DNA from: Actinomycetota bacterium
Lineage (GTDB): Bacteria > Actinomycetota > Humimicrobiia > Humimicrobiales > Humimicrobiaceae
Direction of reading: 5' to 3'
Assembly (NCBI GenBank): GCA_028698215.1
Contig: JAQVDY010000007.1
Location: 6,579 to 70,578, forward strand
DNA: 64,000 nt
Made by a program: the position numbers and the translations under genes. This document shows positions 5,387 to 49,103 of this stretch, piece after piece (the first letter of the stretch is position 1; every line of letters starts with the position of its first letter). The notes below the pieces were generated by a model. That model did no database searches and was not told the origin of the DNA. It saw nothing but the letters and a program-made list of their open reading frames with translations.

Positions 5387-6244
5387 ATGGTAAATTTAAC
5401 TAAACTCCAACTAATGGAGCTGCATGAAAAATCTTATCAGGCCAGAATCAATATACTGAAAATGATGAGATTTGGGGAAGGCCATATAGGAGGGGCCTTT
5501 TCCAGCCTGGACATCATGACCGTACTTTATAACCAGATATTAAGGCACAAACCGTCTAATCCCAAATGGGAAGACCGGGACCGGTTCATATTATCTGCCG
5601 GCCATAAATGCCTGGCCTTGTATGCCTGTTTGGCTGACCAGGGTTATTTTGATACTGATGTTTTATGGACCTATAATACTTTGGATACCAGGGTACCCAT
5701 GCATCCGGATGAAAAGGTTTTACCGGGAGTGGAGTTTCCCACCGGCTCTTTGGGGCACGGGCTTCCAGTGGCCAATGGAATGGCTTTAGCCGGCAGGCTG
5801 GATAAAAAGGATTACCGGGTGTTTGTAATTTTAGGCGATGGAGAATGTGCCGAGGGGAGCGTATGGGAGGCAGTTATGGCCGCAGGCCACCATCATCTGG
5901 ACAATGTAGTGGCCATAGTAGACCGTAACCGGCTGCAGGTAAACGGGAGAACCGAAGATATTATGGATACCTCTCCCTTTGAGGATAAGTTTAAGGCTTT
6001 TGGCTGGGAGGTAAAGACAATAAACGGGCATGATTTTCAGTCCATATACCAGGTCTTGTCCCAGGTGCCTTTCTGCAAAGGCAAGCCATCGGCCATTATT
6101 GCCGATACGGTAAAATGCAGGGGGCTGGACTTTGGAGAGGATAAATTTGAGTTTCACCACTGGCATTGCGAGCTGGATAAAATTGATGAAGCCATAGATG
6201 TGGTGGCCAAGAGAAAAAGAGAGGAGCAGGCTAAAATTGGATAA
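5387..6244 (+). CDS. Transketolase, N-terminal (TPP-binding) subunit of a split transketolase
   Basis: 285 aa; GHxG..S, GSLGHGLPVANGMALA, ILGDGECAEGSVWEA motifs. Confidence 0.85.
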   Translation: MVNLTKLQLMELHEKSYQARINILKMMRFGEGHIGGAFSSLDIMTVLYNQILRHKPSNPKWEDRDRFILSAGHKCLALYACLADQGYFDTDVLWTYNTLDTRVPMHPDEKVLPGVEFPTGSLGHGLPVANGMALAGRLDKKDYRVFVILGDGECAEGSVWEAVMAAGHHHLDNVVAIVDRNRLQVNGRTEDIMDTSPFEDKFKAFGWEVKTINGHDFQSIYQVLSQVPFCKGKPSAIIADTVKCRGLDFGEDKFEFHHWHCELDKIDEAIDVVAKRKREEQAKIG

Positions 6245-7187
6245 CAAGGAAACTATATATGAAAATCCCAGAAAGATAATTGCAGATGCCCTGGTGGAGC
6301 TGGGCCAGCAAAACAGTAGGGTTGTTTATGTGTCCTGCGACTCTTCTTTAGGGGCCTCGGGGGGTCCATTTAACCAGAATTTTCCGGAAAGGCATTTTGA
6401 GTTTGGAATACAGGAACAAAACGGCATGGGGGAAGCGGCAGGGTTGGCCATAAGCGGAAAGATCCCCTTTATAGCTGCTTATGTGCCTTTTGTGGCTTTC
6501 CGCTGTTTTGAACAAATCAGGGATGATGTATGCAAGACCAGATTAAACGTAAACATCATGGGCAATAACTGCGGTTTTTCCGTAGGGCCTTTGGGTCCCA
6601 CCCATGTGGTGCTGGAAGATATAGCGGTAATTGGCTCTTTGCCTAATATTACCATTATCTCTCCTGCTGACGGGCCCCAGTACAGGGAAGCTATCTTTAA
6701 GGCCGCACAACTGGAGGGACCGGTTTATTTGCGTGTTCACCGTGAAAAGGCCAGGCGTATCTATGGAGAGAATTACCAGATGCAGATAGGCAAGGGAGAA
6801 ATTTTGAAGCAGGGCAGTGATATTACGGTAGTAGCTACCTCCACCATGGTGGCCAATTGCCTGGATGCAGCGGAAGCCCTGAAGTCTTCAGGCATTGATG
6901 CTGAAGTGATAAACATATCCACCTTAAAGCCTATAGACAGGGAAATAATATTGGGGTCCAGCGCTAAAACCAAAAAGGTGGTTACGGTAGAAGAGCACAG
7001 TACCATAAACGGGTTGGGCAGCATAGTAGCCAACGTGCTGGCTGAATCCGGGCCTGCACCCATTAAAAAAATAGGTATAGAAGATGTTTTTGCGGTAGTA
7101 GGCCAATATCAGGAGCTGATAGAGTATTATGGCCTTACCGGGCCCAGCATTGCCCAGAAGATAGAAGAATTTTTAAATCCAAGATAG
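6237..7187 (+). CDS. Transketolase, C-terminal (pyrimidine-binding/C-terminal domain) subunit
   Basis: Track ORF begins at ATG 6198 (47-nt overlap with upstream gene). TTG at 6237 preceded by GAGGAGCAGG gives MDNKETIYENP..., a typical N-terminus, with an 8-nt overlap. Motifs FGIQEQN, GPTH, transketolase C-terminal domain. Confidence 0.8.
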   Translation: MDNKETIYENPRKIIADALVELGQQNSRVVYVSCDSSLGASGGPFNQNFPERHFEFGIQEQNGMGEAAGLAISGKIPFIAAYVPFVAFRCFEQIRDDVCKTRLNVNIMGNNCGFSVGPLGPTHVVLEDIAVIGSLPNITIISPADGPQYREAIFKAAQLEGPVYLRVHREKARRIYGENYQMQIGKGEILKQGSDITVVATSTMVANCLDAAEALKSSGIDAEVINISTLKPIDREIILGSSAKTKKVVTVEEHSTINGLGSIVANVLAESGPAPIKKIGIEDVFAVVGQYQELIEYYGLTGPSIAQKIEEFLNPR

Positions 7188-8613: not shown

Positions 8614-9582
8614 ATGGCCAAGTTGTCCAAACAAGATAAACTCAATATGCTTAAAACCCTGCTCACTATCAGGAGGTTTGAAGAAAAGACCATCCAGCTT
8701 TACCAAACTGCCAAGATATGGGGCTACTTGCACCCTTATCTGGGCCAGGAAGCGGTAGCAGTGGGAGCCTGCCAGGCCTTGGACCAGGATGATTATATAG
8801 TGTCTACCCACCGGGGTCACGGCCACTGCATAGCCAAGGGAGGAGACCTAAACAAGATGATGGCGGAGCTGCTGGGAAAGAGTACGGGTTATTGCAAGGG
8901 ACGCGGTGGTTCCATGCATATAGCGGATACCGATTTGGGAATACTGGGAGCCAATGGTATCGTGGGGGGAGGTATACCTATTTCGGTAGGGGCAGGTTTC
9001 AGCTGCAAACTGGAGGGCCGGGCCAGGGTAGCGGTTTGCTTTTTTGGGGACGGGGCTGCCAATAACGGGGTATTCCATGAATCCTTGAATATGGCCTCTA
9101 TATTCAAATTACCGGTTATATACATTTGTGAAAACAATCTTTATGCCATTTCCATGTGTTCCCAGTTTTCAGTAGCCTGCGGGGATGTAGCTAACCGTGC
9201 TGCCTCTTATTCCATACCGGGAAAGGTAGTAGAAGGGGATGACCCGGAGCAGGTATTTGATTCAGTAAAGGAGGCGGTACAGGCAGCCAGGAAAGGCAAG
9301 GGACCCAGCCTGATCGAGGCTAAGACTTACCGGTTTACCGGGCATCATCCCAATGACCCGGCAGAATACAGGGAAAAAGAGGAAGCAGACTATTACAAGC
9401 TAAACAAGGATCCATTAAAGAATTATTCGAATCAATTAATTAAGGAAAAAGTTATAAGCAAAACCGCTTATGAAAACATGAACAGGCAAGTCCTTTCAGC
9501 GGTGGAAGAATCAGTAAAGTTTGCAGAAAGCAGCCCGGAGCCTGACCTGGATACTTTTTTGGAGGAAGTAAAGAATATCTAA
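8614..9582 (+). CDS. TPP-dependent 2-oxoacid/acetoin dehydrogenase E1 component, alpha subunit (AcoA/PdhA-like)
   Basis: 322 aa; HRGHGH, TPP-binding GDGA(x)NNG, FICENNLYAIS motifs. Confidence 0.8.
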   Translation: MAKLSKQDKLNMLKTLLTIRRFEEKTIQLYQTAKIWGYLHPYLGQEAVAVGACQALDQDDYIVSTHRGHGHCIAKGGDLNKMMAELLGKSTGYCKGRGGSMHIADTDLGILGANGIVGGGIPISVGAGFSCKLEGRARVAVCFFGDGAANNGVFHESLNMASIFKLPVIYICENNLYAISMCSQFSVACGDVANRAASYSIPGKVVEGDDPEQVFDSVKEAVQAARKGKGPSLIEAKTYRFTGHHPNDPAEYREKEEADYYKLNKDPLKNYSNQLIKEKVISKTAYENMNRQVLSAVEESVKFAESSPEPDLDTFLEEVKNI

Positions 9583-9616
9583 GGGTATTTGCAGTAAGAG
9601 ACGGGAAAGGAAAGTT

Positions 9617-10588
9617 ATGGCAAAAATTGAATACAGGGAAGCCTTAAGGCAAGCAATAATAGAAGAGATGGACCGGGACAGCAGGGTATTTCTAATAGGG
9701 GAAGACATAGGGGTGTATGGCGGTGCTTTCCGGGTATACAAGGGCCTTCTGGAAAAATATGGCCCGGACAGGGTAATAAATACCCCTATATCAGAAGCTG
9801 CAATCCTGGGTGCAGGCGTGGGGGCCGCCCTTACCGGCTACCGCCCTGTTTCAGAAATAATGTTTATAGATTTTACTACCCTGGCCATGGACCAGATCGT
9901 AAACCAGGCAGCAAAAATCAGGTATATGACCGGCGACTGCCTTAATGTCCCTTTGGTAATAAGGACCCAGGGAGGTGCGGGCAGGGGGGTTGCCGCCCAG
10001 CATTCCCAGAGCCTGGAGGCATGGTTTTACCATGTACCTGGACTAAAGGTGGTAATGCCTGCCACTCCTTATGATGCCAAGGGCTTGCTTAAAGCATCTA
10101 TCCGGGACAATAATCCGGTTATGTTTATAGAGCAGAAAATGATCTATTTAAACCAGGGAGAGGTTCCGGAGGAAGAGTACTTGATAGACCTGGGTAAGGC
10201 AGATATTAAAAGAGAGGGAAAAGATGTTACTATCTTTGCCTATTCGGCCATGGTGTTTGAAGCTTTGGCGGCTGCAAAAGAATTAGAAGAAGAGGGTATA
10301 AGCTGTGAGGTTTTTGACCCCCGGACCCTGGTGCCTTTGGATTTACAGGCTTTAGTGGACTCAGTTAAAAAAACCCATAGGCTGGTAGTGGTAAGTGAAG
10401 CCTGCCAGAGGGGAAGCATTGCTTCCGATGTCTGTGCCCGTGTAGTAGACCAGGCTTTTGACTGGTTGGATGCTCCAGTAAGGGTGGTAGCCGGGCTTAA
10501 TACCCCCATCCCCTATAATTCTGCCTTGGAGCAAGCTTCTATCCCCCATAAGGAAGACATAGCCAGGGCAGTAAGGCAATTGATTTAA
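9617..10588 (+). CDS. Dehydrogenase E1 component, beta subunit (AcoB/PdhB-like)
   Basis: 323 aa; transketolase-like pyrimidine-binding and C-terminal domains (GEDIGVYGGAF, NTPISEA, MVF...EEGISCEVFDPRTL). Confidence 0.85.
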   Translation: MAKIEYREALRQAIIEEMDRDSRVFLIGEDIGVYGGAFRVYKGLLEKYGPDRVINTPISEAAILGAGVGAALTGYRPVSEIMFIDFTTLAMDQIVNQAAKIRYMTGDCLNVPLVIRTQGGAGRGVAAQHSQSLEAWFYHVPGLKVVMPATPYDAKGLLKASIRDNNPVMFIEQKMIYLNQGEVPEEEYLIDLGKADIKREGKDVTIFAYSAMVFEALAAAKELEEEGISCEVFDPRTLVPLDLQALVDSVKKTHRLVVVSEACQRGSIASDVCARVVDQAFDWLDAPVRVVAGLNTPIPYNSALEQASIPHKEDIARAVRQLI

Positions 10589-16956: not shown

Positions 16957-17781
16957 ATGGAAGAAGATATTAAGAAAAAATTGCAGCAGGCGGCCAAAGC
17001 CATACGAATCAATATCATAGATATGCTCTGCCAGGCTGGCTCCGGCCATCCCGGGGGAGCATTGTCCATGTCTGATGTATTTGCTTATCTTTATTTTAGC
17101 GGAGTATTAAACATCGATCCGGCCCAGCCCCGCAAAAAAGACAGGGACCGGGTAGTGCTATCCAAGGGGCATGCCTGCCCAGTACTTTATTCCACCCTGG
17201 CTGAAAAGGGCTATTTTGATAAGTCTCACCTGGGGACACTGCGAAAATTTGGCAGCATACTCCAAGGCCATCCTGACATGAATAAAACTCCCGGGGTTGA
17301 TATGAGTACCGGCTCGCTGGGTCAGGGCCTGTCCTGTGCGGTGGGCATGGCTTTAGGGGCTAAGCTGGACCAGCAGAATTTAAGGGTATTTGCCATAGTG
17401 GGCGACGGTGAATGCGAAGAAGGCCAGATTTGGGAAGCAGCCATGGCGGCAGCCCATTACCGGCTGGATAACCTTACAGTGGTAGTGGATAAAAATGGCC
17501 TGCAGATTGATGGTTTTACCAAGGACATAATGAGCAGCGAGCCTTTGGCAGAAAAGTGGAGGGCTTTTGGCTGGGAGACATTAGAAATAGATGGACATGA
17601 TTTTGACCAAATCGATATGGCGGTCAAAAAGGCGCAAAATACAAAGGGCAGGCCAACTGTTTTAGTGGCTACCACTGTAAAGGGCAAGGGAGTGGATTTT
17701 ATGGAAGGTATCTGTGACTGGCACGGCCAAGCTCCCACACCAGAGCAAAAAGAGAAAGCAATAGAATGTTTGAACCAATAA
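16957..17781 (+). CDS. Transketolase N-terminal subunit (second copy)
   Basis: 274 aa; same motifs as the 5387 gene (GHPGG, GSLGQGL, VGDGECEEGQIWEA). Confidence 0.85.
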   Translation: MEEDIKKKLQQAAKAIRINIIDMLCQAGSGHPGGALSMSDVFAYLYFSGVLNIDPAQPRKKDRDRVVLSKGHACPVLYSTLAEKGYFDKSHLGTLRKFGSILQGHPDMNKTPGVDMSTGSLGQGLSCAVGMALGAKLDQQNLRVFAIVGDGECEEGQIWEAAMAAAHYRLDNLTVVVDKNGLQIDGFTKDIMSSEPLAEKWRAFGWETLEIDGHDFDQIDMAVKKAQNTKGRPTVLVATTVKGKGVDFMEGICDWHGQAPTPEQKEKAIECLNQ

Positions 17782-17815
17782 TAAATATATTAAACTTAAA
17801 TTTTAAGGAGTGGGC

Positions 17816-18784
17816 ATGATTCCAGATAAAATAAAAAAGATACTGGCCACTGAAGATAAAAAGGTGGCTACCAGGGCGGCATATGGTAAGAAGCTGGCTG
17901 AATTAGGACAGGTAAATGAGGATATAGTAGTTCTGGATTGTGATTTATCTAAATCTACCAAAACCAATATTTTTGCTTCCAAGTTTCCGAAAAGATTCTT
18001 TAATTTCGGTATAGCAGAGTCTAATATGATGAGTGCAGCTGCCGGCCTGGCCACCATGGGTAAAATACCTTTTGCTTCCACCTTTGGGGTTTTTGCATCC
18101 AAAAGGGCAGCAGACCAAGTAAGCATATCTGTAGCTTATCCCCGGCTTAATGTAAAGATTTGTGCTACCCATACCGGTATAACTGTAGGTGAGGATGGGG
18201 CTACCCACCAGGCCATAGAAGATGTGGCTATTATGAGGTCCATACCTAATATAGCAGTTATCTCTCCGGCCGATGCTACGGAAACCGAAAAAGCCCTGGA
18301 AGCTGTACTGAAAATAGACGGGCCTTGTTATGTGAGGCTGTGCCGGGGTTCTGCTCCTGTAATATTCAATGATTCCTACCAGTTTGAGCTGGGAAAGGGA
18401 GTAAAAATTTATGAAGGCGATGCTGCTACCATTATTGCTTCCGGGTACACTACCCATATAGCGCTGGAAGCAGCTAAAGAGCTGGAAGGGCAGGCAATAG
18501 AGGTGGAAGTTATAAATATGGGCTCCATTAAACCCATTGACCAAGAACTGATAATAGAAAGCGCTAAAAAAACCGGTTTGGTAATAACAGTAGAAGACCA
18601 TAATGTGATTGGCGGCCTGGGCAGTGCAGTATGTGAAGTTTTAGCACAGAGTCAGCCTACCAAGGTAATAAGGCTGGGGGTACAGGACAAATTCGGAGCT
18701 TCGGGCACTCCCCAGGAACTGATCCAGGCTTATGGGTTTGACAAGGAAAGCATTATAAAGACAGTAAAGGACAATATTGGCTAA
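17816..18784 (+). CDS. Transketolase C-terminal subunit (second copy)
   Basis: Start ATG 17816, 5 nt after AAGGAG; the track GTG 17810 sits inside the RBS. FGIAESNM, GATHQ, C-terminal domain. Confidence 0.85.
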   Translation: MIPDKIKKILATEDKKVATRAAYGKKLAELGQVNEDIVVLDCDLSKSTKTNIFASKFPKRFFNFGIAESNMMSAAAGLATMGKIPFASTFGVFASKRAADQVSISVAYPRLNVKICATHTGITVGEDGATHQAIEDVAIMRSIPNIAVISPADATETEKALEAVLKIDGPCYVRLCRGSAPVIFNDSYQFELGKGVKIYEGDAATIIASGYTTHIALEAAKELEGQAIEVEVINMGSIKPIDQELIIESAKKTGLVITVEDHNVIGGLGSAVCEVLAQSQPTKVIRLGVQDKFGASGTPQELIQAYGFDKESIIKTVKDNIG

Positions 18785-20291
18785 TTTGGATATCCAAAAA
18801 TTCAGGGCAGATGCCCAGGCTTTTCTTTCCAGAAGTGATAAAGAATATTATCTGCATTTTTCCGGCAGGAAAGATAGCCTGGAGACCGCTTCTATATTCG
18901 ATAAGTACAGCTGGCTGTTTACGGTTTCCAATATGCAGTATCTGCAGCAAAAAAAACAGCAGGAAGCAGGGCAGAGCCGAAAGAAGTATTCCTATCTTTT
19001 AAAATTTTGTACTGAATACCTTTTGGAGAAATCACTGCAGCAGCTTAGACAGCAGATTGCCCTGGATGAGGCTGCGGCCAGGGTAAACATTGATGGCAAA
19101 GATATGCCTTTCAGGTTCCTGGAGGTAATGCTGGCCAATGAGCCTGATAAAGCCAGGCGGGATCACATAGAAAAACTAAGGAATGACAAAATAGAAGAAG
19201 CTTTAAACCCTAATCTGTACCAGTACTGGGAGGAGGTTCATCAGCAAGCCAGGCAGTTTGGTTTTGACAGCTATAGCCATCTTTTTTCTTATCTGCTGGA
19301 GCAAGATTTTGACCTGCTTCAGGCGGGTATGAAAAAACTGCTGTCAGAAACCCACCAGTTATACCAGAACCATTTCGGCCAGTTGCTGTATCAGGAATTG
19401 GGTATAAACCTGGGCCAATCTGCCAGGAGTGATTTTATATACCTGAAACGGGGCCAGAAATATGACCCCTATTTTAGCACCCATAAAATGATAGGTTTGT
19501 TTTCAGAAACCCTTAAACAGCTGGGTATAGATATATATAGCCAAAAAAATATTATATTTGATATAGAAAAAAGAAAAAATAAGTCCCCCCGTGCTTTTTG
19601 CTGTACAGTAAGAATCCCTGATGAAATCTACCTGGTAGTTATGCCCAGTGGAGGCCAGGATGATTATGAAGCCATGTTTCATGAGGGAGGCCATGCCCAG
19701 CATTTTGCCCATACATCAGAAAACCTGGATTTTGAGTACAAATTTTTAGGGGATAATGCAGTTACTGAAGGTTATGCCTTTTTACTTGAGTCTTTGCTGC
19801 AGAACAGGTATTGGCTGGCAGACTTTGCCGGCATGGGTGACCAAACCGCTAAGCAGTTCTCCTATTACAGCAATCTGTTAAAATTATGGTACTGCCGGAG
19901 ATATGCCGGAAAGCTGGAGTATGAGCTTCTGCTTCATGATGGCAGCCCTATCCAGGGACGGCAGCAACAATATAGCCATATACTGGGGGAGGCCTGCGGG
20001 ATGGATTATCACCCATCAAGCTATTTGACCGATGTGGATACGGGTTTCTACTGTACCAACTATATTAGGGCCTGGGCGTTTCAGGCACAGCTGGGCCATT
20101 ACTTGGTTACCAAATTTGGAAATAAATGGTTTAAAAGCAATAAAGCGGGTAACTTTTTAAAGGAGGTATGGGGTTCAGGGCAGAAGTATGATGCAGACCA
20201 GGTGCTTGGCCAGCTGGGGTTGGGCCGGCTTGATTTGGACTACCTTATAGGTTCCCTGGTAGACAGTATCAATCAATATGAAGAATTATAA
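18777..20291 (+). CDS. HExxH zinc metallopeptidase, M3 (oligoendopeptidase F)-like
   Basis: 504 aa; FHEGGHAQH followed about 25 residues later by a Glu (TEGYAF), the gluzincin pattern. TTG start overlaps the tktC stop, AAGGA RBS. Confidence 0.5.
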   Translation: MANLDIQKFRADAQAFLSRSDKEYYLHFSGRKDSLETASIFDKYSWLFTVSNMQYLQQKKQQEAGQSRKKYSYLLKFCTEYLLEKSLQQLRQQIALDEAAARVNIDGKDMPFRFLEVMLANEPDKARRDHIEKLRNDKIEEALNPNLYQYWEEVHQQARQFGFDSYSHLFSYLLEQDFDLLQAGMKKLLSETHQLYQNHFGQLLYQELGINLGQSARSDFIYLKRGQKYDPYFSTHKMIGLFSETLKQLGIDIYSQKNIIFDIEKRKNKSPRAFCCTVRIPDEIYLVVMPSGGQDDYEAMFHEGGHAQHFAHTSENLDFEYKFLGDNAVTEGYAFLLESLLQNRYWLADFAGMGDQTAKQFSYYSNLLKLWYCRRYAGKLEYELLLHDGSPIQGRQQQYSHILGEACGMDYHPSSYLTDVDTGFYCTNYIRAWAFQAQLGHYLVTKFGNKWFKSNKAGNFLKEVWGSGQKYDADQVLGQLGLGRLDLDYLIGSLVDSINQYEEL

Positions 20292-22805: not shown

Positions 22806-23306
22806 ATGGATGCCGAAAAATTTGAGCGAAAAGTAACCAGGCAAATGGAAGATTATTTCAGCCAATATCCCCAGCATATTGAACATACAAAGAGAGTGCT
22901 GGGTTATGCTAAACAAATAATGAATGCTGAAGGCGGAGACAGCACCGTAATAACGGCTGCTGCCCTACTGCATGATATAGGGCTGCTGGAAAGTAAACGA
23001 AAATATGGTTCTTATGCCGGCAAATATCAACAGATAGAAGGACCTCCTATTGCCCGTAAATTTTTAGAAGAGGCGGATGCCTCGCCAGAATTAATTGATG
23101 AAGTTTGTGCTATAGTGGGCAGCCACCATACCAGGGGGGTAATCAATACTACAAACTTCCATGTTATCTGGGATGCTGACTGGCTAGTAAATTTTGCTAC
23201 CCTGCATGGTAAGGAAAGCCAACAAAAGAAGGCCGAACTCATAGATAAGCTGCTTATTACCGAAACCGGTAAAAAAATGGCCAGGAATATATACCTGTCC
23301 AGCTAA
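22806..23306 (+). CDS. HD-domain phosphohydrolase
   Basis: 166 aa; H...HDIG...HH pattern; no GYP motif, so not HD-GYP. Confidence 0.65.
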   Translation: MDAEKFERKVTRQMEDYFSQYPQHIEHTKRVLGYAKQIMNAEGGDSTVITAAALLHDIGLLESKRKYGSYAGKYQQIEGPPIARKFLEEADASPELIDEVCAIVGSHHTRGVINTTNFHVIWDADWLVNFATLHGKESQQKKAELIDKLLITETGKKMARNIYLSS

Positions 23307-23342
23307 TCATTTTTAGCTGTTAATAGTATTGGGGGGGATGGT

Positions 23343-25031
23343 ATGAATGAATATATCCAGTGTAAAAATATAAATATTGATGCAGACAAACTGGCGGAAA
23401 AAATTTTGGATTACCAGTACCAAATACAGAAGGATCTGGGTGGGCGCTATTCTGCAAGGGACCGGCAGCTCTGTCTCAGGGATATCAAATACCACCTTAA
23501 TTACCTATGCAGCTCTGTTGCTTTTGACAGCATAACCTTATTTGAGGATTATATAGATTGGGCAAGGGTGTTGCTGGGGGGATACGGTCTTCCCCCCAGG
23601 GACCTGGCAAATAACCTGGAAAGCATGAAAAAGGTGCTTTCTGAAGAGCTGCCTGCTGATATCAGGGACAAGGTTGCCTATTTTCTGCAGCAGGGCCAAA
23701 AAAGGATAAAAACCAATACCGGTAAGGTAGATTCTTTTTTAAGCACCAAGCAGCAGCACAGCCGGATTTTAAACCAGTATTTCCAAGCCCTTTTAGCCTG
23801 GAAAAAAGAGGAAGCGCTATTTGTGGTTATGGAAGCCTTAAAAAAGCAAGTTAGCATAAAGGATCTTTACTTGAAAGTATTCCAGCCAGCCCAATATGAG
23901 CTGGGAAGGCTGTGGCAGAGGGGGGAAATAGATGTAGCGGGGGAGCATTATGGTACTGCCCTTACCCAATTTATAATGTCACAGCTCTATCCCCGCATAC
24001 TTTCTACTGCTAAAACAGGAAGGGTGTTTATAGGCACCTGTATTAACGGTGAGCAGCATGAAATAGGCATGAGGATGGTTACTGATTTACTGGAATATGA
24101 AGGCTGGGACACTTACTATCTGGGTGCAAATACCCCTGCCGGCAGTATTTTAGGGAAAATTAAAACCCTTAAACCTGATTTGGTAGGGATATCAGCTACC
24201 ATGCTGTTTAATGTGGGAAGCGTATATGAACTGATTGTCCAGATAAGGGATAGTAACCGTAATGTAAAGATAATAGTGGGTGGTTATCCCTTCCGGCAGG
24301 ACAAGGATTTGTGGAAATCCATTGGGGCTGATGGCTGTGCTGCGGATCTAGATAAAGTGGTAGAGATATGCAGCCGACTGGTCAAAGGGCCCCGCCTGGC
24401 ATCTTTTACCGCTCCTAAAATGGAATTTAGTTCAAACCAGACTAAAATTGAAGATTACCCCAGCCCCCACAGCAAGTTGTTTGCCCTCAACAATGAACTT
24501 ATAAACATGCAGAGACAGCTAAGCAAGAAAAACATACAGCTGGATCAGCTAAACCAAAAACTTGAATTGATTTCCATGCAGGATTCCCTGACCCAACTCT
24601 ATAACCGCCGTTATTTTTACCAATCCATAAAGCAGGAAATAAACAGGGCTGACCGGATAGGATACAGGCTGGTTCTGGTATTGGCAGATTTGAATAATTT
24701 CAAACAAATAAATGATGTTCTGGGACATAAGGCAGGGGATAACCTGTTGATAGGGCTGGCCCATATTTTGCAGCAAAATTTAAGAAAAGGGCTGGATACT
24801 GCCTATCGCTGGGGAGGGGACGAATTTTTGCTTACCATGTCTAATACAAGCAAAAGCCAAGCCTGGCAGGTTATGGCCAGGATTGATGAAAAATTAAGAA
24901 AAAAGAATAGTACCGTGTCCCTAGCCTGGGGGATAATAGAGATTAATAGCAAAAACTTGGATAAAATAGATGAGTTTATCAAAAAAGCTGATGGAATGAT
25001 GTATGAGCATAAGAAAAAGGTTAAGGGCTAG
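23343..25031 (+). CDS. CarH-like cobalamin-binding (B12-binding_2 plus B12-binding) sensor fused to a GGDEF diguanylate cyclase
   Basis: 562 aa; W-x9-EH (WQRGEIDVAGEHY) and DxHxxG-type (GEQHEIGMRMV) cobalamin motifs, coiled-coil linker, intact RWGGDEF active site. Confidence 0.8.
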   Translation: MNEYIQCKNINIDADKLAEKILDYQYQIQKDLGGRYSARDRQLCLRDIKYHLNYLCSSVAFDSITLFEDYIDWARVLLGGYGLPPRDLANNLESMKKVLSEELPADIRDKVAYFLQQGQKRIKTNTGKVDSFLSTKQQHSRILNQYFQALLAWKKEEALFVVMEALKKQVSIKDLYLKVFQPAQYELGRLWQRGEIDVAGEHYGTALTQFIMSQLYPRILSTAKTGRVFIGTCINGEQHEIGMRMVTDLLEYEGWDTYYLGANTPAGSILGKIKTLKPDLVGISATMLFNVGSVYELIVQIRDSNRNVKIIVGGYPFRQDKDLWKSIGADGCAADLDKVVEICSRLVKGPRLASFTAPKMEFSSNQTKIEDYPSPHSKLFALNNELINMQRQLSKKNIQLDQLNQKLELISMQDSLTQLYNRRYFYQSIKQEINRADRIGYRLVLVLADLNNFKQINDVLGHKAGDNLLIGLAHILQQNLRKGLDTAYRWGGDEFLLTMSNTSKSQAWQVMARIDEKLRKKNSTVSLAWGIIEINSKNLDKIDEFIKKADGMMYEHKKKVKG

Positions 25032-25893
25032 TATAGCTTTAGGCCTGTTAATGCTGCTGGCCAGCATTCTCATAGGGGGAAATGCCTGCAGCCAGGCTAA
25101 GCTTGCCCCAAAGTTAAAAGTAGTAACCACTATTTATCCTATCTATGATATAACTAAAAATTTGGCAGGGGATAACCTGGAAGTGGTTTGTATAATACTG
25201 CCTGGTGAAAGCCCCCACACCTTTGAGATAACCCCGGAAAGGGTTAAGCAGCTACAGGGGGCAAAATTAGCATTTAAGGTAGGCCTGGGCCTGGATGACT
25301 GGCTGGATGATACTATTAGCAGCCTGGGCCTGGGCATCCAGGTGCATAATTTACATCAGGGCATAGACCTGATAGAAGACAAGGGTGCTGCCAATCCCCA
25401 TATATGGCTGTCATTGGTAAATGCCCAAACCATAGTGGAAAATATAAGTGAAAGGCTGACTGGTAGTTTTCCGCAGTTTAAAGATGAATTTGAGCAAAAC
25501 CAACAGATTTATATGGAAAACCTGCAAGAAATGGATGCTGGATTTAAAGATGAAGCCGCAAATTTTAGCCAAAGTCAGTTTATAGCTTTTCATGATGCAT
25601 GGAGCTATATGGCCAGGGACCTGGACTTGGAGCAGGTAATGTCGGTAGAGCCTTTCCCCGGCAAAGAGCCTGCCCCCCAGTATATTATAGAACTGTATGA
25701 AACCATACAGCAGTACCAGCTGGACACTATATTCATTGAGCCCCAACTGTCAACTGATGTGGTGAACTATTTGTCTGAAGACCTGGGGCTGGAAGTAAAA
25801 GTATTGGACCCCTTAGGGGGAACCGGGGGCAGGGATTCCTACCTGGAGCTCATGGATTATAATTTCCAACAGCTAAAATATGCTTTAAAGTGA
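25003..25893 (+). CDS. Metal (Zn/Mn) ABC-transporter substrate-binding lipoprotein, ZnuA/TroA family
   Basis: 296 aa; signal peptide with Cys; cluster-9 SBP layout with His-rich region (ESPHTFE, HIW); no permease or ATPase genes adjacent. Confidence 0.75.
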   Translation: MSIRKRLRASIALGLLMLLASILIGGNACSQAKLAPKLKVVTTIYPIYDITKNLAGDNLEVVCIILPGESPHTFEITPERVKQLQGAKLAFKVGLGLDDWLDDTISSLGLGIQVHNLHQGIDLIEDKGAANPHIWLSLVNAQTIVENISERLTGSFPQFKDEFEQNQQIYMENLQEMDAGFKDEAANFSQSQFIAFHDAWSYMARDLDLEQVMSVEPFPGKEPAPQYIIELYETIQQYQLDTIFIEPQLSTDVVNYLSEDLGLEVKVLDPLGGTGGRDSYLELMDYNFQQLKYALK

Positions 25894-35914: not shown

Positions 35915-36556
35915 ATGGAAGACAGGATGCCCTTATTAGGAGAAATATTTCCCGAAATGGAAGTAGTAACCACCCATGGAAAGCTTAAGCTGCCTATTGA
36001 TTATGCTGGAAAATGGTTTATTTTGTTTAGCCATCCCGCTGATTTTACACCGGTATGCACTACTGAATTCGTTGCTTTCCAGAAAAGGTATGACCAGTTC
36101 AGGAAATTTAATTGCGAATTAATCGGATTAAGCATAGACCAGGTTTTTTCCCATATTAAATGGGTGCAGTGGATAAAAGAAAATCTTGATGTTGAAATCA
36201 AGTTTCCAATAATTGCTGATGATGCCGGTGCGGTGTCTCAAAAACTGGGTTTTATCCATCCGGGTAAAGGGACCAATACAGTTAGGGCGGTAATGATAGT
36301 AGACCCTAATGCCAGGATAAGGGCAATGCTCTATTACCCCCAGGAGTTAGGCAGAAATATGGATGAAATTTTAAGGATGATAGAAGCATTCCAGGTAGCA
36401 GAGAAAAACGGAGTGGCCATGCCTGCCAACTGGCCTAATAATGAAATAATAAAAGATGAAGTTATAATACCGCCCCCTACCGATGAAAGGGCAATAGCAG
36501 ATAGGATGAAAAAATATGATTGCTTTGACTGGTGGTTCTGTCATAAAAAATTATAG
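35915..36556 (+). CDS. Peroxiredoxin (Prx6/1-Cys type)
   Basis: 213 aa; FTPVCTTE peroxidatic Cys motif; AAAGGAGGAG RBS. Confidence 0.85.
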
Positions 36557-36565
36557 GAGGTAAAT

Positions 36566-36940
36566 ATGGCTGAAAAAATGCAAATTTATAAATGTGAAGT
36601 ATGCGGCAACATAGTAGAAGTGCTTCATGGGGGAAAGGGAGAGCTGGTATGCTGTAATGAGCCCATGAAACTGTTTAAGGAAAATACGGTAGATGCAGCT
36701 AAGGAAAAACATGTTCCCGTTATAAAAAGAGATGGTGATATGGTAAAAGTCAAGGTAGGGAGCGTGGACCATCCCATGGAAGAAAAACATTATATTGAAT
36801 GGATTCAGATAGTGGATGGAGATGTGGCGTACCGTAAGTTTCTTAAGCCGGGTGATGCGCCGGAGGCAGAATTTTCCGTAAGCAGTAAAGATATTTACGC
36901 AAGGGAGTATTGTAATATTCATGGATTGTGGAAAGGATAA
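36566..36940 (+). CDS. dfx: Desulfoferrodoxin (2Fe superoxide reductase)
   Basis: 124 aa; N-terminal desulforedoxin CxxC...CC (YKCEVCGN....CCNEPM) and C-terminal SOR domain (KHVPV, H..WI). Confidence 0.85.
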
Positions 36941-36943
36941 AAA

Positions 36944-37456
36944 ATGATAAGCAAAAAAATGCAAACAGCTATAAATGAACAGATAAATGCGGAGATGTAT
37001 TCCTCTTACCTTTATCTGGCCATGAGTGCCTATTTTGAAAATACAGACCTTACCGGTTTTGCTAACTGGATGAGGATACAGGCCCAGGAAGAACTGGATC
37101 ATGCTATGAAGTTTTTTGATTTTGTAAACGAAAGGGGAGGCCAGGTGGTACTGAAGGACATAAAGGCTTCTGCTACTGCCTGGAAGTCACCGGTAGAGGT
37201 AATGGAAGCAGTATATGCCCACGAGCAAAAGGTTACCGGGCTTATAAATGACCTGGTTGATTTGGCCATAAAGGAAAAAGACCATGCTTCTAATAATTTT
37301 TTACAGTGGTTTGTGGCAGAGCAGGTGGAAGAAGAGGCTTCAGCTGAAGCTATCATAAAAAAGCTTAAGCTGGTAAGCGGTACCGGTAATGGATTGTTTA
37401 TGATAGACCAGGAGTTGGCCAAGAGGGTTTATACTCCCCCGGCTGCTGCTGAATAA
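36944..37456 (+). CDS. Non-heme ferritin
   Basis: 170 aa; [22 protein letters not shown] and EELDHAMKF ferroxidase-centre motifs. Confidence 0.8.
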
Positions 37457-37492
37457 TAATGGTTTTAAAAAAAATATAAAAAGTTATATATT

Positions 37493-37526
37493 ATAATCGC
37501 ACCTTTAAAGGTGCGATTATATTTTG
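37493..37526 (+). terminator. Hairpin (10-bp perfect stem AATCGCACC/GGTGCGATT, loop TTTAAA) plus a T-rich tail between the ferritin and fprA genes: partial terminator or attenuator
   Basis: Read directly; located in the 90-bp intergenic gap. Confidence 0.35.
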
Positions 37527-37546
37527 CAAGCTAACAGGAGGCAATA

Positions 37547-38722
37547 ATGGCAGAACAAATAAAGAATAATGTATTCTATGTGGGAGCCAAGGACCCTGAC
37601 CGGGAGTTGTTTGATGAGCTCATTCCTTTACCGGATGGTACTACCTATAATTCCTACTTGGTAAAGGGCAGCGAAAAAGTGGCCTTAATTGATACCGTAG
37701 ACCCTTCTAAGGTGGATGAGCTATGGGCGCATTTGGAGCAATTGAATGTTAATAATATAGATTATATTATTGCCAATCATGCCGAGCAGGACCATTCGGG
37801 ATCCATACCCCAGGTGTTAGAAAAGTTCCCCCGGGCCGTAGTGGTAACTAATGAAAAGTGCAAGGGCATGCTGATAGATTTGCTGCATATAGCAGATGAT
37901 AAGTTTCTGGTAGTAGAGGATGGCTCATCTCTATACCTGGGCGATAAGAACCTGGAATTTATAATAGCTCCCTGGGTCCACTGGCCTGAAACCATGTTCA
38001 CTTACCTTAAAGAGGACAAGATACTGTTTACCTGTGATTATCTGGGCTCACATTTTTCCTTTGAAAATCTTTATGTAGAGGACCAGGAAGCTACCTATAG
38101 GAATGCCAAAAGATATTATGCTGAAATTATGATGCCTTTTGCCAATCTGGCTAAAAAACATCTGGATAAAGTCCAGGGGCTGGATATTGAAATTATAGCT
38201 CCCAGCCATGGCCAGGTGTATAAGGATTATGGCTTTATATTGGATGCCTATAAAGACTGGACTTCGGATGGGGTCAAAAATGAGGTAGTTTTAGCCTATG
38301 TTTCCATGCATGGGAGTACCAAGGAAATGGTTGATTATTTTAAATCAGCACTGGAAGCTAAAAAGGTAAAGGTAAAAACTTTTAACCTTACTCATACAGA
38401 TACTGGTGAACTGGCCATGGCTTTGGTGGATGCGGCTACTGTGGTTTTAGCTACTCCTACCGTGCTCTCAGGGCCCCACCCGGCAGCGGTGTATGCTGCT
38501 TACCTGGTCAAAGCCTTAAGGCCCAAGACCAGGTATTTAGGCCTTATTGGTTCCTATGGCTGGGGAGGAAAGACGGTAGAAGTAATTTCTGACCTGGTTT
38601 CCACCCTAAAAGCAGAGATACTGGAGCCGGTAATAGTGAAAGGCCTGCCGGACCAACAGGCCTTGGCTGGGTTGGATAAACTGGCTGCCGGCATAGCGGA
38701 AAAACACTCTCAGCTAGATTAA
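37547..38722 (+). CDS. Flavodiiron protein (FprA / rubredoxin:oxygen oxidoreductase type)
   Basis: 391 aa; metallo-beta-lactamase-like diiron domain (HxExDH: NHAEQDHSG) plus C-terminal flavodoxin domain. Confidence 0.85.
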   Translation: MAEQIKNNVFYVGAKDPDRELFDELIPLPDGTTYNSYLVKGSEKVALIDTVDPSKVDELWAHLEQLNVNNIDYIIANHAEQDHSGSIPQVLEKFPRAVVVTNEKCKGMLIDLLHIADDKFLVVEDGSSLYLGDKNLEFIIAPWVHWPETMFTYLKEDKILFTCDYLGSHFSFENLYVEDQEATYRNAKRYYAEIMMPFANLAKKHLDKVQGLDIEIIAPSHGQVYKDYGFILDAYKDWTSDGVKNEVVLAYVSMHGSTKEMVDYFKSALEAKKVKVKTFNLTHTDTGELAMALVDAATVVLATPTVLSGPHPAAVYAAYLVKALRPKTRYLGLIGSYGWGGKTVEVISDLVSTLKAEILEPVIVKGLPDQQALAGLDKLAAGIAEKHSQLD

Positions 38723-42227: not shown

Positions 42228-42575
42228 ATGATAATTAAGAGAAGATCAGAGTTCAAGCCGGAAATTATGAATGATAACCAGATAAGAGGGGTAAAATTTT
42301 ATCCTTTGATTACTGCCCAGGACGGGGCCCCTAATTTTGCCATGAGGGTATTTGAAGTAGAGCCCGGCGGCTATAGTCCCCGTCACTCCCATAAATGGGA
42401 ACATGAAATCTATGTAATAGAAGGCAGCGGCTATGCCGTCAAAGAAAATGGGGTTATACCTATTGGTAAAGATGACTGCATTTTGGTAGAGCCTTCAGAG
42501 CTTCACCAAATAAAAGCGGGGGAAGAGGGCATAACTTTTATATGTGTAGTTCCCCACGAAGGCCAGCCTTCCTAA
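42228..42575 (+). CDS. Cupin-domain protein
   Basis: Start ATG 42228 after AAAAGGGG; two-motif cupin (PRHSHKWEHEIYVIEG ... VEP.ELHQI). Confidence 0.6.
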   Translation: MIIKRRSEFKPEIMNDNQIRGVKFYPLITAQDGAPNFAMRVFEVEPGGYSPRHSHKWEHEIYVIEGSGYAVKENGVIPIGKDDCILVEPSELHQIKAGEEGITFICVVPHEGQPS

Positions 42576-42586
42576 AAACAATAAAT

Positions 42587-43801
42587 ATGAATAGAAAATA
42601 TTTAACTATAGCGGTAATGCTGCTGGCTATAGTGCTTACAGCTTGTGCTCCTGCTAAAGAGTTTGGGCCACTTACCGTATGCAGCAGCATAGACAGCCAG
42701 ACTTACCAGCCTTTGGATAAAAAAGATGAGTTTGAAATAGAGACCAGGCAGGTGTATGCAGCAATAGAAGTGGCAAATGTACCTTCTGACAGTATTTGGA
42801 CCTTTAAATGGATAAATCAACAGGATGGCCAAATACTATCTACCAGCTCAGGCCAGTATATGGAAGATTCCAATTTAAGGGTAAGCGGTTATTTTGCCAG
42901 CGTGTTTAGCGCGGCTGAAGAAAGCCAGGCTATAGCTTTACCTGGAACCTACCGGGTGGAGTATTATCATGACCAAAAACTAATCGACAGTAAAATCTTC
43001 ACCGTCATGCAGCCGGAAATTAAGGTGGAGCGGTTAATTTTGGGCAGTCAGATAGGCGTTGACGGGCTTCCCATGGAAAACAGGGGCAAGTTTTATAATA
43101 ATGAAGATATGTATTTGTACTTAAAGCTTAACTATTTGGCGGACGGAACCGTTATGGAAGTTACCTGGTTAAGGCAGCAGGAAGTTATAGCGGAAACAGG
43201 GCAAATATCCAGGGAGAATAATTTAGCCCCTGCCGGCAGCCTGTTTGAATTAAAGGCAGATTCAGGTCTGGTTCCTGGTGGGTACAGGGTGGATATTGCC
43301 CTGGATGGCCTCCGGGTACAAAGCCTGGAGTTTGAAGTGGTAAATAATCTGGAAAGCCTGCAGGATTACTTCAATGACCACTATGATTTTTCATTCAGCT
43401 ACCCCCAGTGGATGATGCCTAAAGAAAAAGAAGGTGAAAATTTTTACCTTATAAACTTATATCCCAGGGATCAAATCCAGGATATGGTAATGGGTGTATG
43501 GATTATTCCAGGCCGTATTGCTCCCCCAGAAGAAAATCTGGGCCAATTTGCGGATAACTTGGCCACCGGCAATATTGAAGAAGAATATAAAATAGAGCTG
43601 GCATCAGAACAGGATTCAAACCTGGGTTATGCCTATGTCTATAAGGATAATGAAGGTCAAAAGTGGGAGCTTAGGTTGGACTTTAAACCAAGCGGCCAAC
43701 ACATCTTTATGGTAACCGGCTTAGCCCGGGAGAATTATGTCCAGGATATGGAGGCTATATTTAAAGGCATGATGGATTCCTTAAAATTTCCCATTGAGTA
43801 A
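42587..43801 (+). CDS. Hypothetical lipoprotein with two internal repeats
   Basis: Start ATG 42587 (MNRKYLTIAVMLLAIVLTAC lipobox); the track start 42542 would overlap the cupin gene by 34 nt; two approx 110-aa repeats (W..QQ....G.YRV). Confidence 0.5.
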   Translation: MNRKYLTIAVMLLAIVLTACAPAKEFGPLTVCSSIDSQTYQPLDKKDEFEIETRQVYAAIEVANVPSDSIWTFKWINQQDGQILSTSSGQYMEDSNLRVSGYFASVFSAAEESQAIALPGTYRVEYYHDQKLIDSKIFTVMQPEIKVERLILGSQIGVDGLPMENRGKFYNNEDMYLYLKLNYLADGTVMEVTWLRQQEVIAETGQISRENNLAPAGSLFELKADSGLVPGGYRVDIALDGLRVQSLEFEVVNNLESLQDYFNDHYDFSFSYPQWMMPKEKEGENFYLINLYPRDQIQDMVMGVWIIPGRIAPPEENLGQFADNLATGNIEEEYKIELASEQDSNLGYAYVYKDNEGQKWELRLDFKPSGQHIFMVTGLARENYVQDMEAIFKGMMDSLKFPIE

Positions 43802-43901: not shown

Positions 43902-44909
43902 TTGTTTTTGGGGTTTAAAAAGCTGAAAGTTCTAATATTGGTTATAGCAGCTCTGTTGGTTTTACCCACTTTTAGCTGTAATCTTAAAACCTATCAGAAA
44001 TTTGAACAGACCCGCGAATTAATGGGTACACTGGTAAGCATAACTGTTTACTCTTACGACCAGCAGGCAGCTGAAGGAGCTATGGAGGCTGCTTTTGAAC
44101 GGATGGTAGAAATAGAAAGCATTGCCAACACCTATGATCCCAACAGCCAAATTTCAATACTTAACCAAGACGGTCATATCAAAAACCCTTCTCCTGTTCT
44201 ATCTGAACTGGTTACTGAATCTAAGAATTACTATCAGATTAGCCAGGGGGCTTTTGATATTACGGTGCAGCCTTTGCTGAATTTATGGGCATCTGGTTTG
44301 TGGCAGGAAACAGAACAGGTACAGCAACAGAAAATAAACCAGGCCATGGAAATGGTAGGTGCTAATTATATTATAGTGGAGCCGGACCGGATATATTTTG
44401 AAAAAGAGGGAATGGAAATTACTCTGGGAGGAATTGCCAAGGGTTATGCAGTAGATAAGGCAATGGAAGTGCTTAAATCAAAAGGCATCAGCTATGCTTT
44501 GGTAAATGCTGGCGGTGATATAATGACCAGCGGCAAAAAACCAGACGGCAGCTTCTGGACCATAGCCCTGGAAAATCCTGACAATAAGGAAGAGAGCATA
44601 GAGGTATTAAATGTGGCAGGGAAGGCAGTTACCACTTCCGGAAATTATGAAAGGTATTTTGACCCAGATAAGGAAGCCCACCACTTGATAGACCCCAGGA
44701 GTGGCTTTTCCGCCAACCAGTGCATAAGTGCCACTATTATTTCTACCAGCTGCATGGATGCTGATGCACTTTCTACTTCCATTTTTGTATTGGGTCCCCA
44801 GCAGGGCATTGATTTGGTTAATAGCCTAAATGGAGTTGAAGCCCTGATTATTGATAATGATAGAAATATATTCAGGTCTCAGGGCTTATCTAAATATGTT
44901 AATAATTAA
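43902..44909 (+). CDS. apbE: FAD:protein FMN transferase ApbE (lipoprotein)
   Basis: 335 aa; signal/lipobox FSC; ApbE motifs (FDITVQPL, GGIAKGYAVD, ALSTS); immediately upstream of rnfC. Confidence 0.8.
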   Translation: MFLGFKKLKVLILVIAALLVLPTFSCNLKTYQKFEQTRELMGTLVSITVYSYDQQAAEGAMEAAFERMVEIESIANTYDPNSQISILNQDGHIKNPSPVLSELVTESKNYYQISQGAFDITVQPLLNLWASGLWQETEQVQQQKINQAMEMVGANYIIVEPDRIYFEKEGMEITLGGIAKGYAVDKAMEVLKSKGISYALVNAGGDIMTSGKKPDGSFWTIALENPDNKEESIEVLNVAGKAVTTSGNYERYFDPDKEAHHLIDPRSGFSANQCISATIISTSCMDADALSTSIFVLGPQQGIDLVNSLNGVEALIIDNDRNIFRSQGLSKYVNN

Positions 44910-44912
44910 AGA

Positions 44913-46280: not shown

Positions 46281-46334
46281 GGTTTGAACTAAAAAAAAGT
46301 TTAATTTATACTTATAAAATCTAGGGACAAGAAG

Positions 46335-47285: not shown

Positions 47286-47289
47286 AGAG

Positions 47290-47820
47290 ATGTTTGATAA
47301 ATTTAAAAAAACAAAAATATATCCCATAATTTTACTGACAGTAGTGGTTTTGGTTTCAGTTACCTTATTGATGTTTTTAGGCAATATTACATCGGCAGTG
47401 GTGGAAGAAAGAAAAAAAGCGGAAATTGTAGAAATGTTGAAGCAGATTTACCCTGAAATGTCTGATTTCAGCCTGGAAAATGATATATATACGGTACTGG
47501 AAGGCCAGGAGGAAATAGGACATGCTTTTTTAGCTGAGGGCAATGGTTACGGAGGAGTAATCAGCATAATTGTAGGCCTGGATAAGGATTTGGCAGTTAA
47601 GGATATAAGCATAGTGAGCCAGACAGAAACGCCTGGATTGGGCAGCATGATAACTGAAGATTCTTTTACACAACAGTTTATCGGACTGTCTGCACAGGAA
47701 ATAGAGCTGTCTTCTTCGGGCGGCAAGATTGACTCCATTTCCGGAGCCACTATAAGCTCAGAAGCAGTTACTTCTGCTGTCAGGCAGGCAATGGAAGAAA
47801 AGATAAAGTCTATTAAGTAA
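47290..47820 (+). CDS. rnfG: Rnf complex subunit G
   Basis: Start placed at the internal ATG (MFDKFKK...) just after the rnfD stop; single TM plus FMN-binding domain with SGAT(I/Y)SS. Confidence 0.8.
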   Translation: MFDKFKKTKIYPIILLTVVVLVSVTLLMFLGNITSAVVEERKKAEIVEMLKQIYPEMSDFSLENDIYTVLEGQEEIGHAFLAEGNGYGGVISIIVGLDKDLAVKDISIVSQTETPGLGSMITEDSFTQQFIGLSAQEIELSSSGGKIDSISGATISSEAVTSAVRQAMEEKIKSIK

Positions 47821-47832
47821 GGATAAACGGTA

Positions 47833-49075: not shown

Positions 49076-49103
49076 ATTTTTTTATAAGGAGTTTTAATTA
49101 GAA

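Follow-up and report, generated by a model that had tools for sequence, protein, structure and literature searches.

The stretch analysed here (the window) is 64,000 nt of the Actinomycetota contig JAQVDY010000007.1 (family Humimicrobiaceae). On its forward strand it carries a gene, at positions 23343-25031, for a 562-residue protein that is probably a photocobilin-type sensor, in which bilin and B12 chromophores would act together, fused to a diguanylate cyclase (DGC). The open reading frame (ORF) runs from ATG to stop exactly over these coordinates, and its product has four Pfam domains above their gathering thresholds: Phycobilisome, B12-binding_2, B12-binding, and GGDEF. A first-pass annotation had described a CarH-type cobalamin photosensor fused to a GGDEF cyclase. 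The ORF and the motifs it quoted are real, as seen by ORF reading, regular-expression matches, Pfam, and conservation in homologs (all conservation counts given here refer to a 74-sequence homolog alignment), and the coupling of light and/or cobalamin to cyclic di-GMP (c-di-GMP) synthesis that it proposed is, by analogy with characterised proteins, still the likely function. The full-length AlphaFold2 (AF2) model, with a predicted local distance difference test score (pLDDT) of 89.7 and a predicted template-modelling score (pTM) of 0.65, comprises a globin (residues 14-124), a four-helix bundle followed by a Rossmann fold (140-346), a low-confidence tether (352-372), and a single helix (375-412) that enters the GGDEF fold.

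Photoglobins were defined by Schneider et al. (2022; PMC8717448). Photocobilins were named by Zhang et al. (2024; PMC10979010), who solved structures of SasPcob and AbPcob and found that adenosylcobalamin (AdoCbl) and biliverdin (BV) are optically coupled and that red light can trigger cleavage of the Co-C bond. In AbDPcob, the DGC activity of the AdoCbl form rises more than 10-fold upon illumination while the protein stays dimeric (PMC10979010). Photocobilins are known with either chromophore domain at the N-terminus; standalone members neighbour kinases and diguanylate cyclases, and they regulate DGC activity in trans (PMC10979010).

Sequence and model identify the N-terminal domain as a photoglobin as Schneider et al. 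defined it (PMC8717448), a phycobiliprotein-like globin with a putative bilin-binding role; the evidence is a set of sequence and structure matches to phycobiliproteins and SasPcob. When the full protein was searched against solved structures, photocobilins (8J2W/8J2X) ranked first, with a second aligned stretch that places residues 36-101 on residues 253-318 of SasPcob, its C-terminal bilin-binding globin. Residues 1-142 searched alone with phmmer matched allophycocyanin (APC) beta chains best (E 2.5e-4), with SasPcob at E 0.013; here 'CLRDikYhLnYl' of the query pairs with 'C(L/V)RDldYfLRYa' of APC. An AF2 model of residues 1-136, built from the 74-sequence alignment, has six helices and a pLDDT of 91.6. 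In a Foldseek search of the PDB with this domain-only model, all of the top 50 matches were phycobiliprotein subunits, engineered derivatives (smURFP, an APC fusion), or SasPcob. Query template-modelling scores (TMq) reached 0.74; the best natural APC matches had TMq ~0.70-0.73 with a root-mean-square deviation (rmsd) of ~2 Å over ~113 columns, and 8j2x had TMq 0.68 and rmsd 2.0 Å over 110 columns. The Pfam Phycobilisome match itself (residues 21-106), with 23.9 bits, exceeds the gathering score of 22.2. What had been taken for an N-terminal domain of unknown type and ~150 residues is instead a photoglobin of ~125 residues (helices 14-124) and a linker.

The residues that would contact the bilin are retained. 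D47 aligns with SasPcob Asp270, which binds BV pyrrole rings A-C and has a His counterpart in AbPcob, a weak binder, and W73 aligns with Trp296, which touches both the bilin D ring and the corrin (PMC10979010). W73 is invariant (74/74) and D47 nearly so (72/74); at position 44, 48 of the 74 sequences have Cys and 20 have Ser, together 68. C44 and D47 form a CXRD motif, which is rare in the alignment (4/74); one fused ortholog (P0002) reads CKRD at this site. Rockwell et al. (2023; PMC10151467) assigned CXRD to phycobiliproteins, whose bilin is bound covalently at this Cys, and CXQD to photoglobins. For both domain orders, the photocobilin literature reports a conserved packing of the photoglobin on the two B12 subdomains. 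Foldseek searches with the full-length model gave mostly multi-domain DGC alignments with rmsd ~18 Å; the permuted domain order cannot be aligned by Foldseek.

The B12 module is supported as a light-sensor type, in which the adenosyl group of AdoCbl would be capped, and not as a methyl-transfer type. The experimentally validated signature of light-responsive B12 domains consists of GxxW, EH, GxxH, and GxxxP (PMC11796333), and all four elements are present: G188xxW191, E201H202, G236xxH239, and G261xxxP265. W191, E201, H202, H239, E240, and G242 are invariant in the 74 homologs, so that at the level of sequence the presence of the motifs is far beyond chance. H239 pairs with the ligand His of SasPcob (His108 in the paper). 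The loop had been described as DxHxxG-type; it actually reads ExHxxG, the photoreceptor-type E/DxH variant. CtMerR and SasPcob share the W and the EH with the query, whereas in 4jgi, the methyltransferase-type control, F and L-I stand in their place. By sequence score the module is closest to CtMerR (8jbs, 70.6 bits), followed by SasPcob (8j2w/8j2x, 69), 4jgi (65.2), 1y80 (64.3), AbDPcob (8j2y, 57.8), and CarH (~34). In the Foldseek comparison of the B12 part, CtMerR 8jbs has a target template-modelling score (TMt) of 0.83, and 8j2w_B superimposes with an rmsd of 1.9 Å over 211 alignment columns.

Downstream of the B12 module, the feature that had been called a coiled-coil linker appears in the AF2 model as a disordered tether (352-372) and a long helix (375-412), and the intact RWGGDEF domain announced by the same annotation is borne out as R-W-G491GDEF495. 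PF00990 covers residues 412-559 with 132.7 bits (E 1.4e-38), TIGR00254 scores 128.2 bits against a cut-off of 37.4, and the PDB sequence matches of this part include the active cyclases SiaD, IsPadC, and DgcR. The first metal-binding Asp (D449), the guanine-binding N457, D466, the GGDEF motif at 491-495, and the C-terminal Lys residues are all intact.

The relatives of the protein connect its sensor half with c-di-GMP output in another way. A word-indexed search returned one 99%-identical protein, two full-length orthologs of ~50% identity from Actinomycetota metagenome-assembled genomes (MAGs), and otherwise standalone photoglobin-B12 proteins of ~350 residues with 40-46% identity. An exhaustive HMMER search of 1.84 billion cluster representatives gave 1551 matches at E <= 1e-30; among the best 150 representatives, four carry a C-terminal GGDEF domain and the remainder are standalone sensors or histidine-kinase fusions. 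Two of the four are imperfect, one with a truncated GGDEF and the other without a photoglobin. P0004 (547 aa, 39% identity) was considered as a fourth fused ortholog and not used: its GGDEF is cut off ('RFGGVFCKYFF...') and its photoglobin lacks CxxD. Among GTDB species genomes, only two Actinomycetota MAGs (L005 and L006) have the fused form; both share flavodoxin, DUF454, ZnuA, M23, and M48 neighbours with the window, which is lineage synteny only and offers no functional hint. It suggests that the source organism belongs to, or stands near, an uncultured Actinomycetota lineage. Nine other genomes (four Dehalococcoidia, one Chloroflexia, two Abditibacteriaceae, and two Phycisphaerales) have a sensor gene for 354-397 aa with a separate GGDEF gene next downstream, at a spacing of -34 to +15 nt, and in many further genomes the sensor precedes, or is fused to, HisKA/HATPase_c kinases.

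The signalling helix links the split and fused forms. Residues 379-407 ('LFALNNELINMQRQLSKKNIQLDQLNQKL', 24477-24563) are homologous to a motif that stands directly before HisKA or GGDEF in the partner proteins, with the consensus '(Y/F)xEL(S/T)xLNNELxx(M/L)QRELxKKNxELExL'. It was found in seven partner kinase genes and seven partner GGDEF genes and may be a sensor-docking or signalling element of the photoglobin-B12 family. The short Dehalococcoidia partners consist of this helix and GGDEF alone; longer partners add an N-terminal domain of ~130 aa, which has no Pfam match at E <= 1e-4, and an earlier 'YEELMRINNEQxNxLR' helix. Since the helix is common to the partners and the short ones contain nothing but helix and GGDEF, the most likely origin of the protein is the joining of a standalone photoglobin-B12 gene to a short helix-GGDEF partner gene, with the tether as the probable junction. 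The pattern of split and fused forms independently supports the view that sensors of this type are functionally coupled to c-di-GMP synthesis.

Earlier papers already describe photocobilins in both domain orders, their DGC fusions, and their DGC or kinase neighbours (PMC8717448, PMC10979010), and the class of architecture, with one DGC fusion characterised biochemically, is known from them and from PMC11796333; what distinguishes the present protein is a domain order reverse to that of AbDPcob, a CXRD motif with its Cys, the rarity of the fusion, and an anaerobe-like host. AbDPcob, from an Acidimicrobiaceae bacterium (8J2Y, sensor domain) and likewise of the Actinomycetota, combines an AdoCbl-type B12 domain (W-x9-EH, E/DxH), a photoglobin, and GGDEF, and its light-activated c-di-GMP synthesis has been demonstrated (PMC10979010). 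The two proteins match over the B12 domain only, with 23% identity in the Foldseek alignment in addition to the 57.8 bits given above, and at the key position for ligating the bilin AbPcob, whose BV binding is weak, carries His, whereas the query has Asp (D47) together with Cys44. SasPcob (Saccharothrix syringae, 8J2W/8J2X) is similar in the B12 module, in the alignment of the bilin domain with counterparts of Asp270 and Trp296, and in the Gln after the capping Trp; it differs in that its photoglobin is C-terminal, it has no output domain, and its BV is non-covalent because Thr occupies the position of Cys44.

The actual family of the sensor half is that of the B12 proteins with an N-terminal photoglobin (PMC8717448), hundreds of ~350-aa proteins that are 40-46% identical over residues 1-350. 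They share the Cys/Asp spacing (for example WP_077839650, with ligand residues C46/D49/L80) and the GGDEF and kinase outputs; however, most are standalone or kinase-fused, and CXQD is reported for them where the query has CXRD. CarH and CtMerR (5C8A, 8JBS) resemble the query in the fold of their B12 module and in its light-responsive signature; the query differs from them by an enzymatic output, an extra bilin domain, and the lack of both a MerR helix-turn-helix (HTH) and a His beside the capping Trp. The bacteriophytochrome-DGC IsPadC (5LLW) and other sensor-coiled-coil-GGDEF proteins resemble the C-terminal half in that a long helix leads straight into GGDEF and in the sequence and structure of the GGDEF part (E 1e-19, rmsd 2.3-4.1 Å), but the IsPadC sensor is a PAS-GAF-PHY module with covalent BV, and in the query a disordered tether precedes the helix.

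From the characterised photocobilins we infer, by analogy, cofactor binding and a light response that could proceed as follows. The B12 module (140-346) would bind AdoCbl in the base-off/His-on mode via H239, with the adenosyl group capped by W191, E201, and H202, and the photoglobin would hold a linear tetrapyrrole beside the corrin via D47 and W73, possibly covalently on C44. Green or blue light absorbed by AdoCbl would cleave the Co-C bond, as would red light via the bilin, in analogy to SasPcob and AbDPcob. Loss of the adenosyl group would then shift the helix that carries E201 and H202 and remodel the head-to-tail B12 dimer. The tether (347-374) and the helix (375-412) would relay this change to the GGDEF pair, whose capacity to form a productive GTP-GTP dimer would alter, and with it the rate of c-di-GMP synthesis. 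Our default guess is that light activates the cyclase, as it does in AbDPcob, although the sign could differ. A bolder version, which we regard as doubtful, is that Cys44 of the CXRD motif carries a covalent tetrapyrrole, maybe from O2-independent heme degradation, and that the helix is a general plug to kinases and cyclases. No photocobilin characterised so far has such a covalent pigment. If this version were true, nature would offer, in one chain, a template for controlling c-di-GMP in anaerobes with green and red light together.

Table 1. Coordinates in the window of the cyclase gene, its domains, and its predicted functional motifs.
Feature	Position	Strand	Basis
Whole gene: photoglobin - B12-binding_2 - B12-binding - signalling helix - GGDEF	23343..25031	+	ORF, Pfam, AF2 model pLDDT 89.7
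Shine-Dalgarno-like G-rich run (seven G), 5 nt 5' of ATG	23331..23337	+	read from sequence
Photoglobin, phycobiliprotein-like globin, putative bilin-binding domain, residues 14-124	23382..23714	+	Pfam, phmmer, AF2 + Foldseek
C44-L-R-D47 (CXRD), putative bilin-attachment and ligand motif	23472..23483	+	aligned to allophycocyanin and SasPcob
W73, counterpart of SasPcob Trp296	23559..23561	+	alignment; invariant 74/74
Four-helix bundle cap, B12-binding_2, residues 140-219	23760..23999	+	Pfam 143-215 E 2e-13; helices in model
G188xxW191-x9-E201H202, adenosyl-pocket signature of light-responsive B12 domains ('WQRGEIDVAGEHY')	23904..23948	+	regular expression
Rossmann-fold B12-binding domain, residues 228-346	24024..24380	+	Pfam 229-332 E 5.7e-21; Foldseek
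G236-E-Q-H239-E-I-G242 ('GEQHEIGMRMV'); H239, predicted lower axial Co ligand (base-off/His-on)	24048..24068	+	motif; SasPcob alignment
G261-A-N-T-P265, GxxxP signature element	24123..24137	+	regular expression; signature from PMC11796333
Low-confidence flexible tether, residues 347-374, probably former gene junction	24381..24464	+	pLDDT <50 at 352-372; standalone homologs end ~350-358
Long signalling helix, residues 375-412, with 'LNNELxxMQRxLxKKNxxL'	24465..24578	+	model; motif common to partner genes
GGDEF diguanylate cyclase domain, residues 413-561	24579..25025	+	Pfam, TIGR00254, PDB matches
K482-G-L-D485 (I-site position, KxxD), five residues, then G491GDEF495 (A site)	24786..24827	+	motif reading

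Several observations weigh against a photocobilin-type cyclase. The host looks anaerobic, while canonical biliverdin synthesis by heme oxygenase needs O2, and no gene for a heme oxygenase, a bilin reductase, or a cobalamin adenosyltransferase was seen in the Pfam tables for the annotated part of the window, which cannot show genome-wide absence. By fold and hidden Markov model score, the B12 module is equally near to CarH and to the corrinoid proteins of methyltransferases: Foldseek gives a TMt of 0.85 for 3ezx, a monomethylamine corrinoid protein, and NCBIfam gives MtgC_2 56.7 bits and pyl_corrinoid 51.8, next to 48.1 for CarH (NF052513). The fold cannot settle the B12 type, and therefore the motifs, which alone discriminate, and the control alignment were used. 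The GGDEF domain deviates at two conserved places: residues 449-454 (24687-24704) read D-L-N-N-F-K, in which Asn replaces the second Asp of DxDxFK, and at the I-site KGLD (24786-24797) stands in place of RxxD, with R481 one position earlier. AbDPcob, the sole characterised DGC fusion, is ordered DGC, cobalamin-binding domain (CBD), bilin-binding domain (BBD), as opposed to BBD-CBD-helix-DGC here, so that geometry and sign of regulation may differ; its BV occupancy is ~20%, so that the globin can have a role other than that of a chromophore carrier (PMC10979010). In the literature searched, no Cys-containing member with an N-terminal photoglobin is characterised, and no BBD-CBD-DGC fusion.

The main rival, unlikely as we judge it, is a light-independent sensor of cobalamin status, in which the availability, the form (AdoCbl versus other corrinoids), or the redox state of cobalamin would set DGC activity in a dark, anoxic habitat, through binding itself in place of photolysis, and the photoglobin would be a structural lid only. 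It ranks first among the rivals because binding of AdoCbl alone lowers the DGC activity of AbDPcob below that of the apo protein; methylcobalamin, hydroxocobalamin, and cyanocobalamin gave no increase (PMC10979010). The anaerobe-like host context, the many family members from strictly anaerobic lineages, and the weak binding of BV by AbDPcob also fit such a sensor. However, a structural lid would not need the conservation seen at D47, W73, and position 44, the capping residues W191, E201, and H202 are invariant within a full GxxW/EH/GxxH/GxxxP signature, and both characterised photocobilins are photoactive (PMC10979010).

A sensor with AdoCbl as its sole chromophore, responding to UV-to-green light only and with the N-terminal domain as an unrelated accessory, would be the CarH-type arrangement, and we consider it improbable. 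The W-x9-EH and E-x-H motifs are common to CarH, and CarH chains are significant PDB matches (E ~1e-7), but the B12 module is much nearer to photocobilins and CtMerR (~58-71 bits) than to CarH (~34 bits), and the query has an N-terminal photoglobin with conserved bilin-ligand residues in place of a MerR HTH. The capping Trp is followed by Gln (Q192), conserved in at least 90% and the same in SasPcob, whereas CarH reportedly (Jost et al., in 2015) uses a His next to the capping Trp for its bis-His light state. The light state of SasPcob is water- or hydroxide-ligated cobalamin and not the bis-His state of CarH (PMC10979010). Of the label 'CarH-type module', the part that stands is a light-sensor type of B12 domain with a complete signature; membership of the CarH family was rejected, as Pfam finds no MerR HTH, the N-terminus is a globin, and NF052513 scores 48.1 bits against a cut-off of 400.

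Less probable again is a non-catalytic GGDEF domain that serves as a receptor for c-di-GMP or GTP or as an interaction domain. The Asn for the second Asp of DxDxFK and the KxxD I-site would suit it; both are conserved in the fused lineage only, where the query, P0002, and P0003 have D-[LI]-N-N-F-K and RKGxD, each with RWGGDEF, while separate partner GGDEF proteins of other phyla keep canonical DxDxFK, RxxD, and GGEEF. An RxxD I-site is present in many, not all, DGCs. Against a non-catalytic role stand the intact catalytic and nucleotide-binding positions and the Pfam score, and the deviations are conservative and kept across 50%-identical orthologs, which argues for selection rather than decay. 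The GGDEF domain is thus predicted, from its residues, to be catalytically competent, with product inhibition possibly altered.

Finally, a methyl-transfer corrinoid protein (MtaC/MtbC/MetH-like) joined to GGDEF by chance, to which the MtgC_2, pyl_corrinoid, and 3ezx matches could point, is effectively refuted by motifs and context: the best corrinoid scores (42-57 bits) lie far below the cut-offs of 215-370, 4jgi lacks the W and the E-H, the adjacent genes encode an HD hydrolase and ZnuA and no methyltransferase, the fusions and operon partners of the family are signalling outputs, and the methyltransferase-type affinity that the first-pass annotation had named as counting against its reading was not what the motifs and the 4jgi control revealed.

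The cyclase gene lies between two genes on the same strand. An HD-domain phosphohydrolase gene (22806-23306, 166 aa) ends 36 nt upstream; its product lacks the GYP motif and is not an obvious HD-GYP c-di-GMP phosphodiesterase, and the gene is not conserved beside the L005 and L006 orthologs. Downstream, a gene for a ZnuA-family lipoprotein (25003-25893) begins within the cyclase gene and shares its last 29 nt. The order cyclase-ZnuA-M23 peptidase is kept in L005 and L006, which suggests co-transcription, with no evident functional link. Promoter and terminator scans gave sites no more numerous than in shuffled sequence. The only other cobalamin-related signal seen in the window is a short PF02965 match (B12-dependent methionine synthase activation domain, 29 bits) in a 227-aa protein encoded at 49953-50636 on the reverse strand.

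The window also contains an oxygen-defence cluster (35915-38722) for a peroxiredoxin, a desulfoferrodoxin (superoxide reductase), a ferritin-like protein, and a metallo-beta-lactamase/ODP protein (flavodiiron-like), a complete Rnf gene cluster (43902-49952), and several 4Fe-4S proteins. The anaerobic gene repertoire that had been singled out as a notable setting for such a sensor is real in this respect, but less notable than suggested, because the sensor family is present in many anaerobic lineages: Dehalococcoidia, Desulfomonile, Desulfoferrobacter, Syntrophobacteraceae, Methanotrichaceae, Clostridia, and Coprothermobacterota. It also occurs in aerobes (Paenibacillus, Adhaeribacter, and Pyrinomonadaceae).

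Elsewhere, three pairs of split transketolase genes (N- and C-terminal halves) lie within 14 kb (5387-7187, 8614-10588, and 16957-18784), and among them are genes for a SorC-type sugar-binding regulator, RpiB, transaldolase, and an FGGY kinase. The first 615 nt of the window contain the end of a row of bacterial microcompartment genes, five EutN/CcmL-type and one BMC-type shell gene, that extends upstream of it (L004 313-2002). Two PolX-like genes (DNA polymerase beta domains and PHP) stand within 7 kb, at 56353-58077 on the reverse and 61143-62888 on the forward strand, adjoining a DUF763 gene and a HhH-GPD glycosylase gene. Two forward-strand ORFs, 18777-20291 (504 aa) and 42542-43801 (419 aa), are conserved, have no Pfam match, and recur in independent metagenome contigs. 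An exact-match look-up of a 767-aa protein gave no match.

The protein is a worthwhile candidate for biochemistry and optogenetics and not a new category of sensor. It extends the photocobilin family, first demonstrated experimentally in 2024 and with two characterised members, by a compact single chain of opposite domain order (bilin-B12-helix-DGC) in which the key bilin Asp is intact and a phycobiliprotein-like Cys is present. Annotators who meet a 'B12-binding + GGDEF' protein that begins with an unassigned domain of ~130 aa should look for a photoglobin there. The protein may serve as an optogenetic tool for c-di-GMP, and it could be a test case for the control of a C-terminal cyclase by a head-to-tail B12 dimer and for whether Cys-containing photoglobins bind bilin covalently. 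A sensor of this kind in anaerobes also raises the question, not a new one, of where the bilin comes from.

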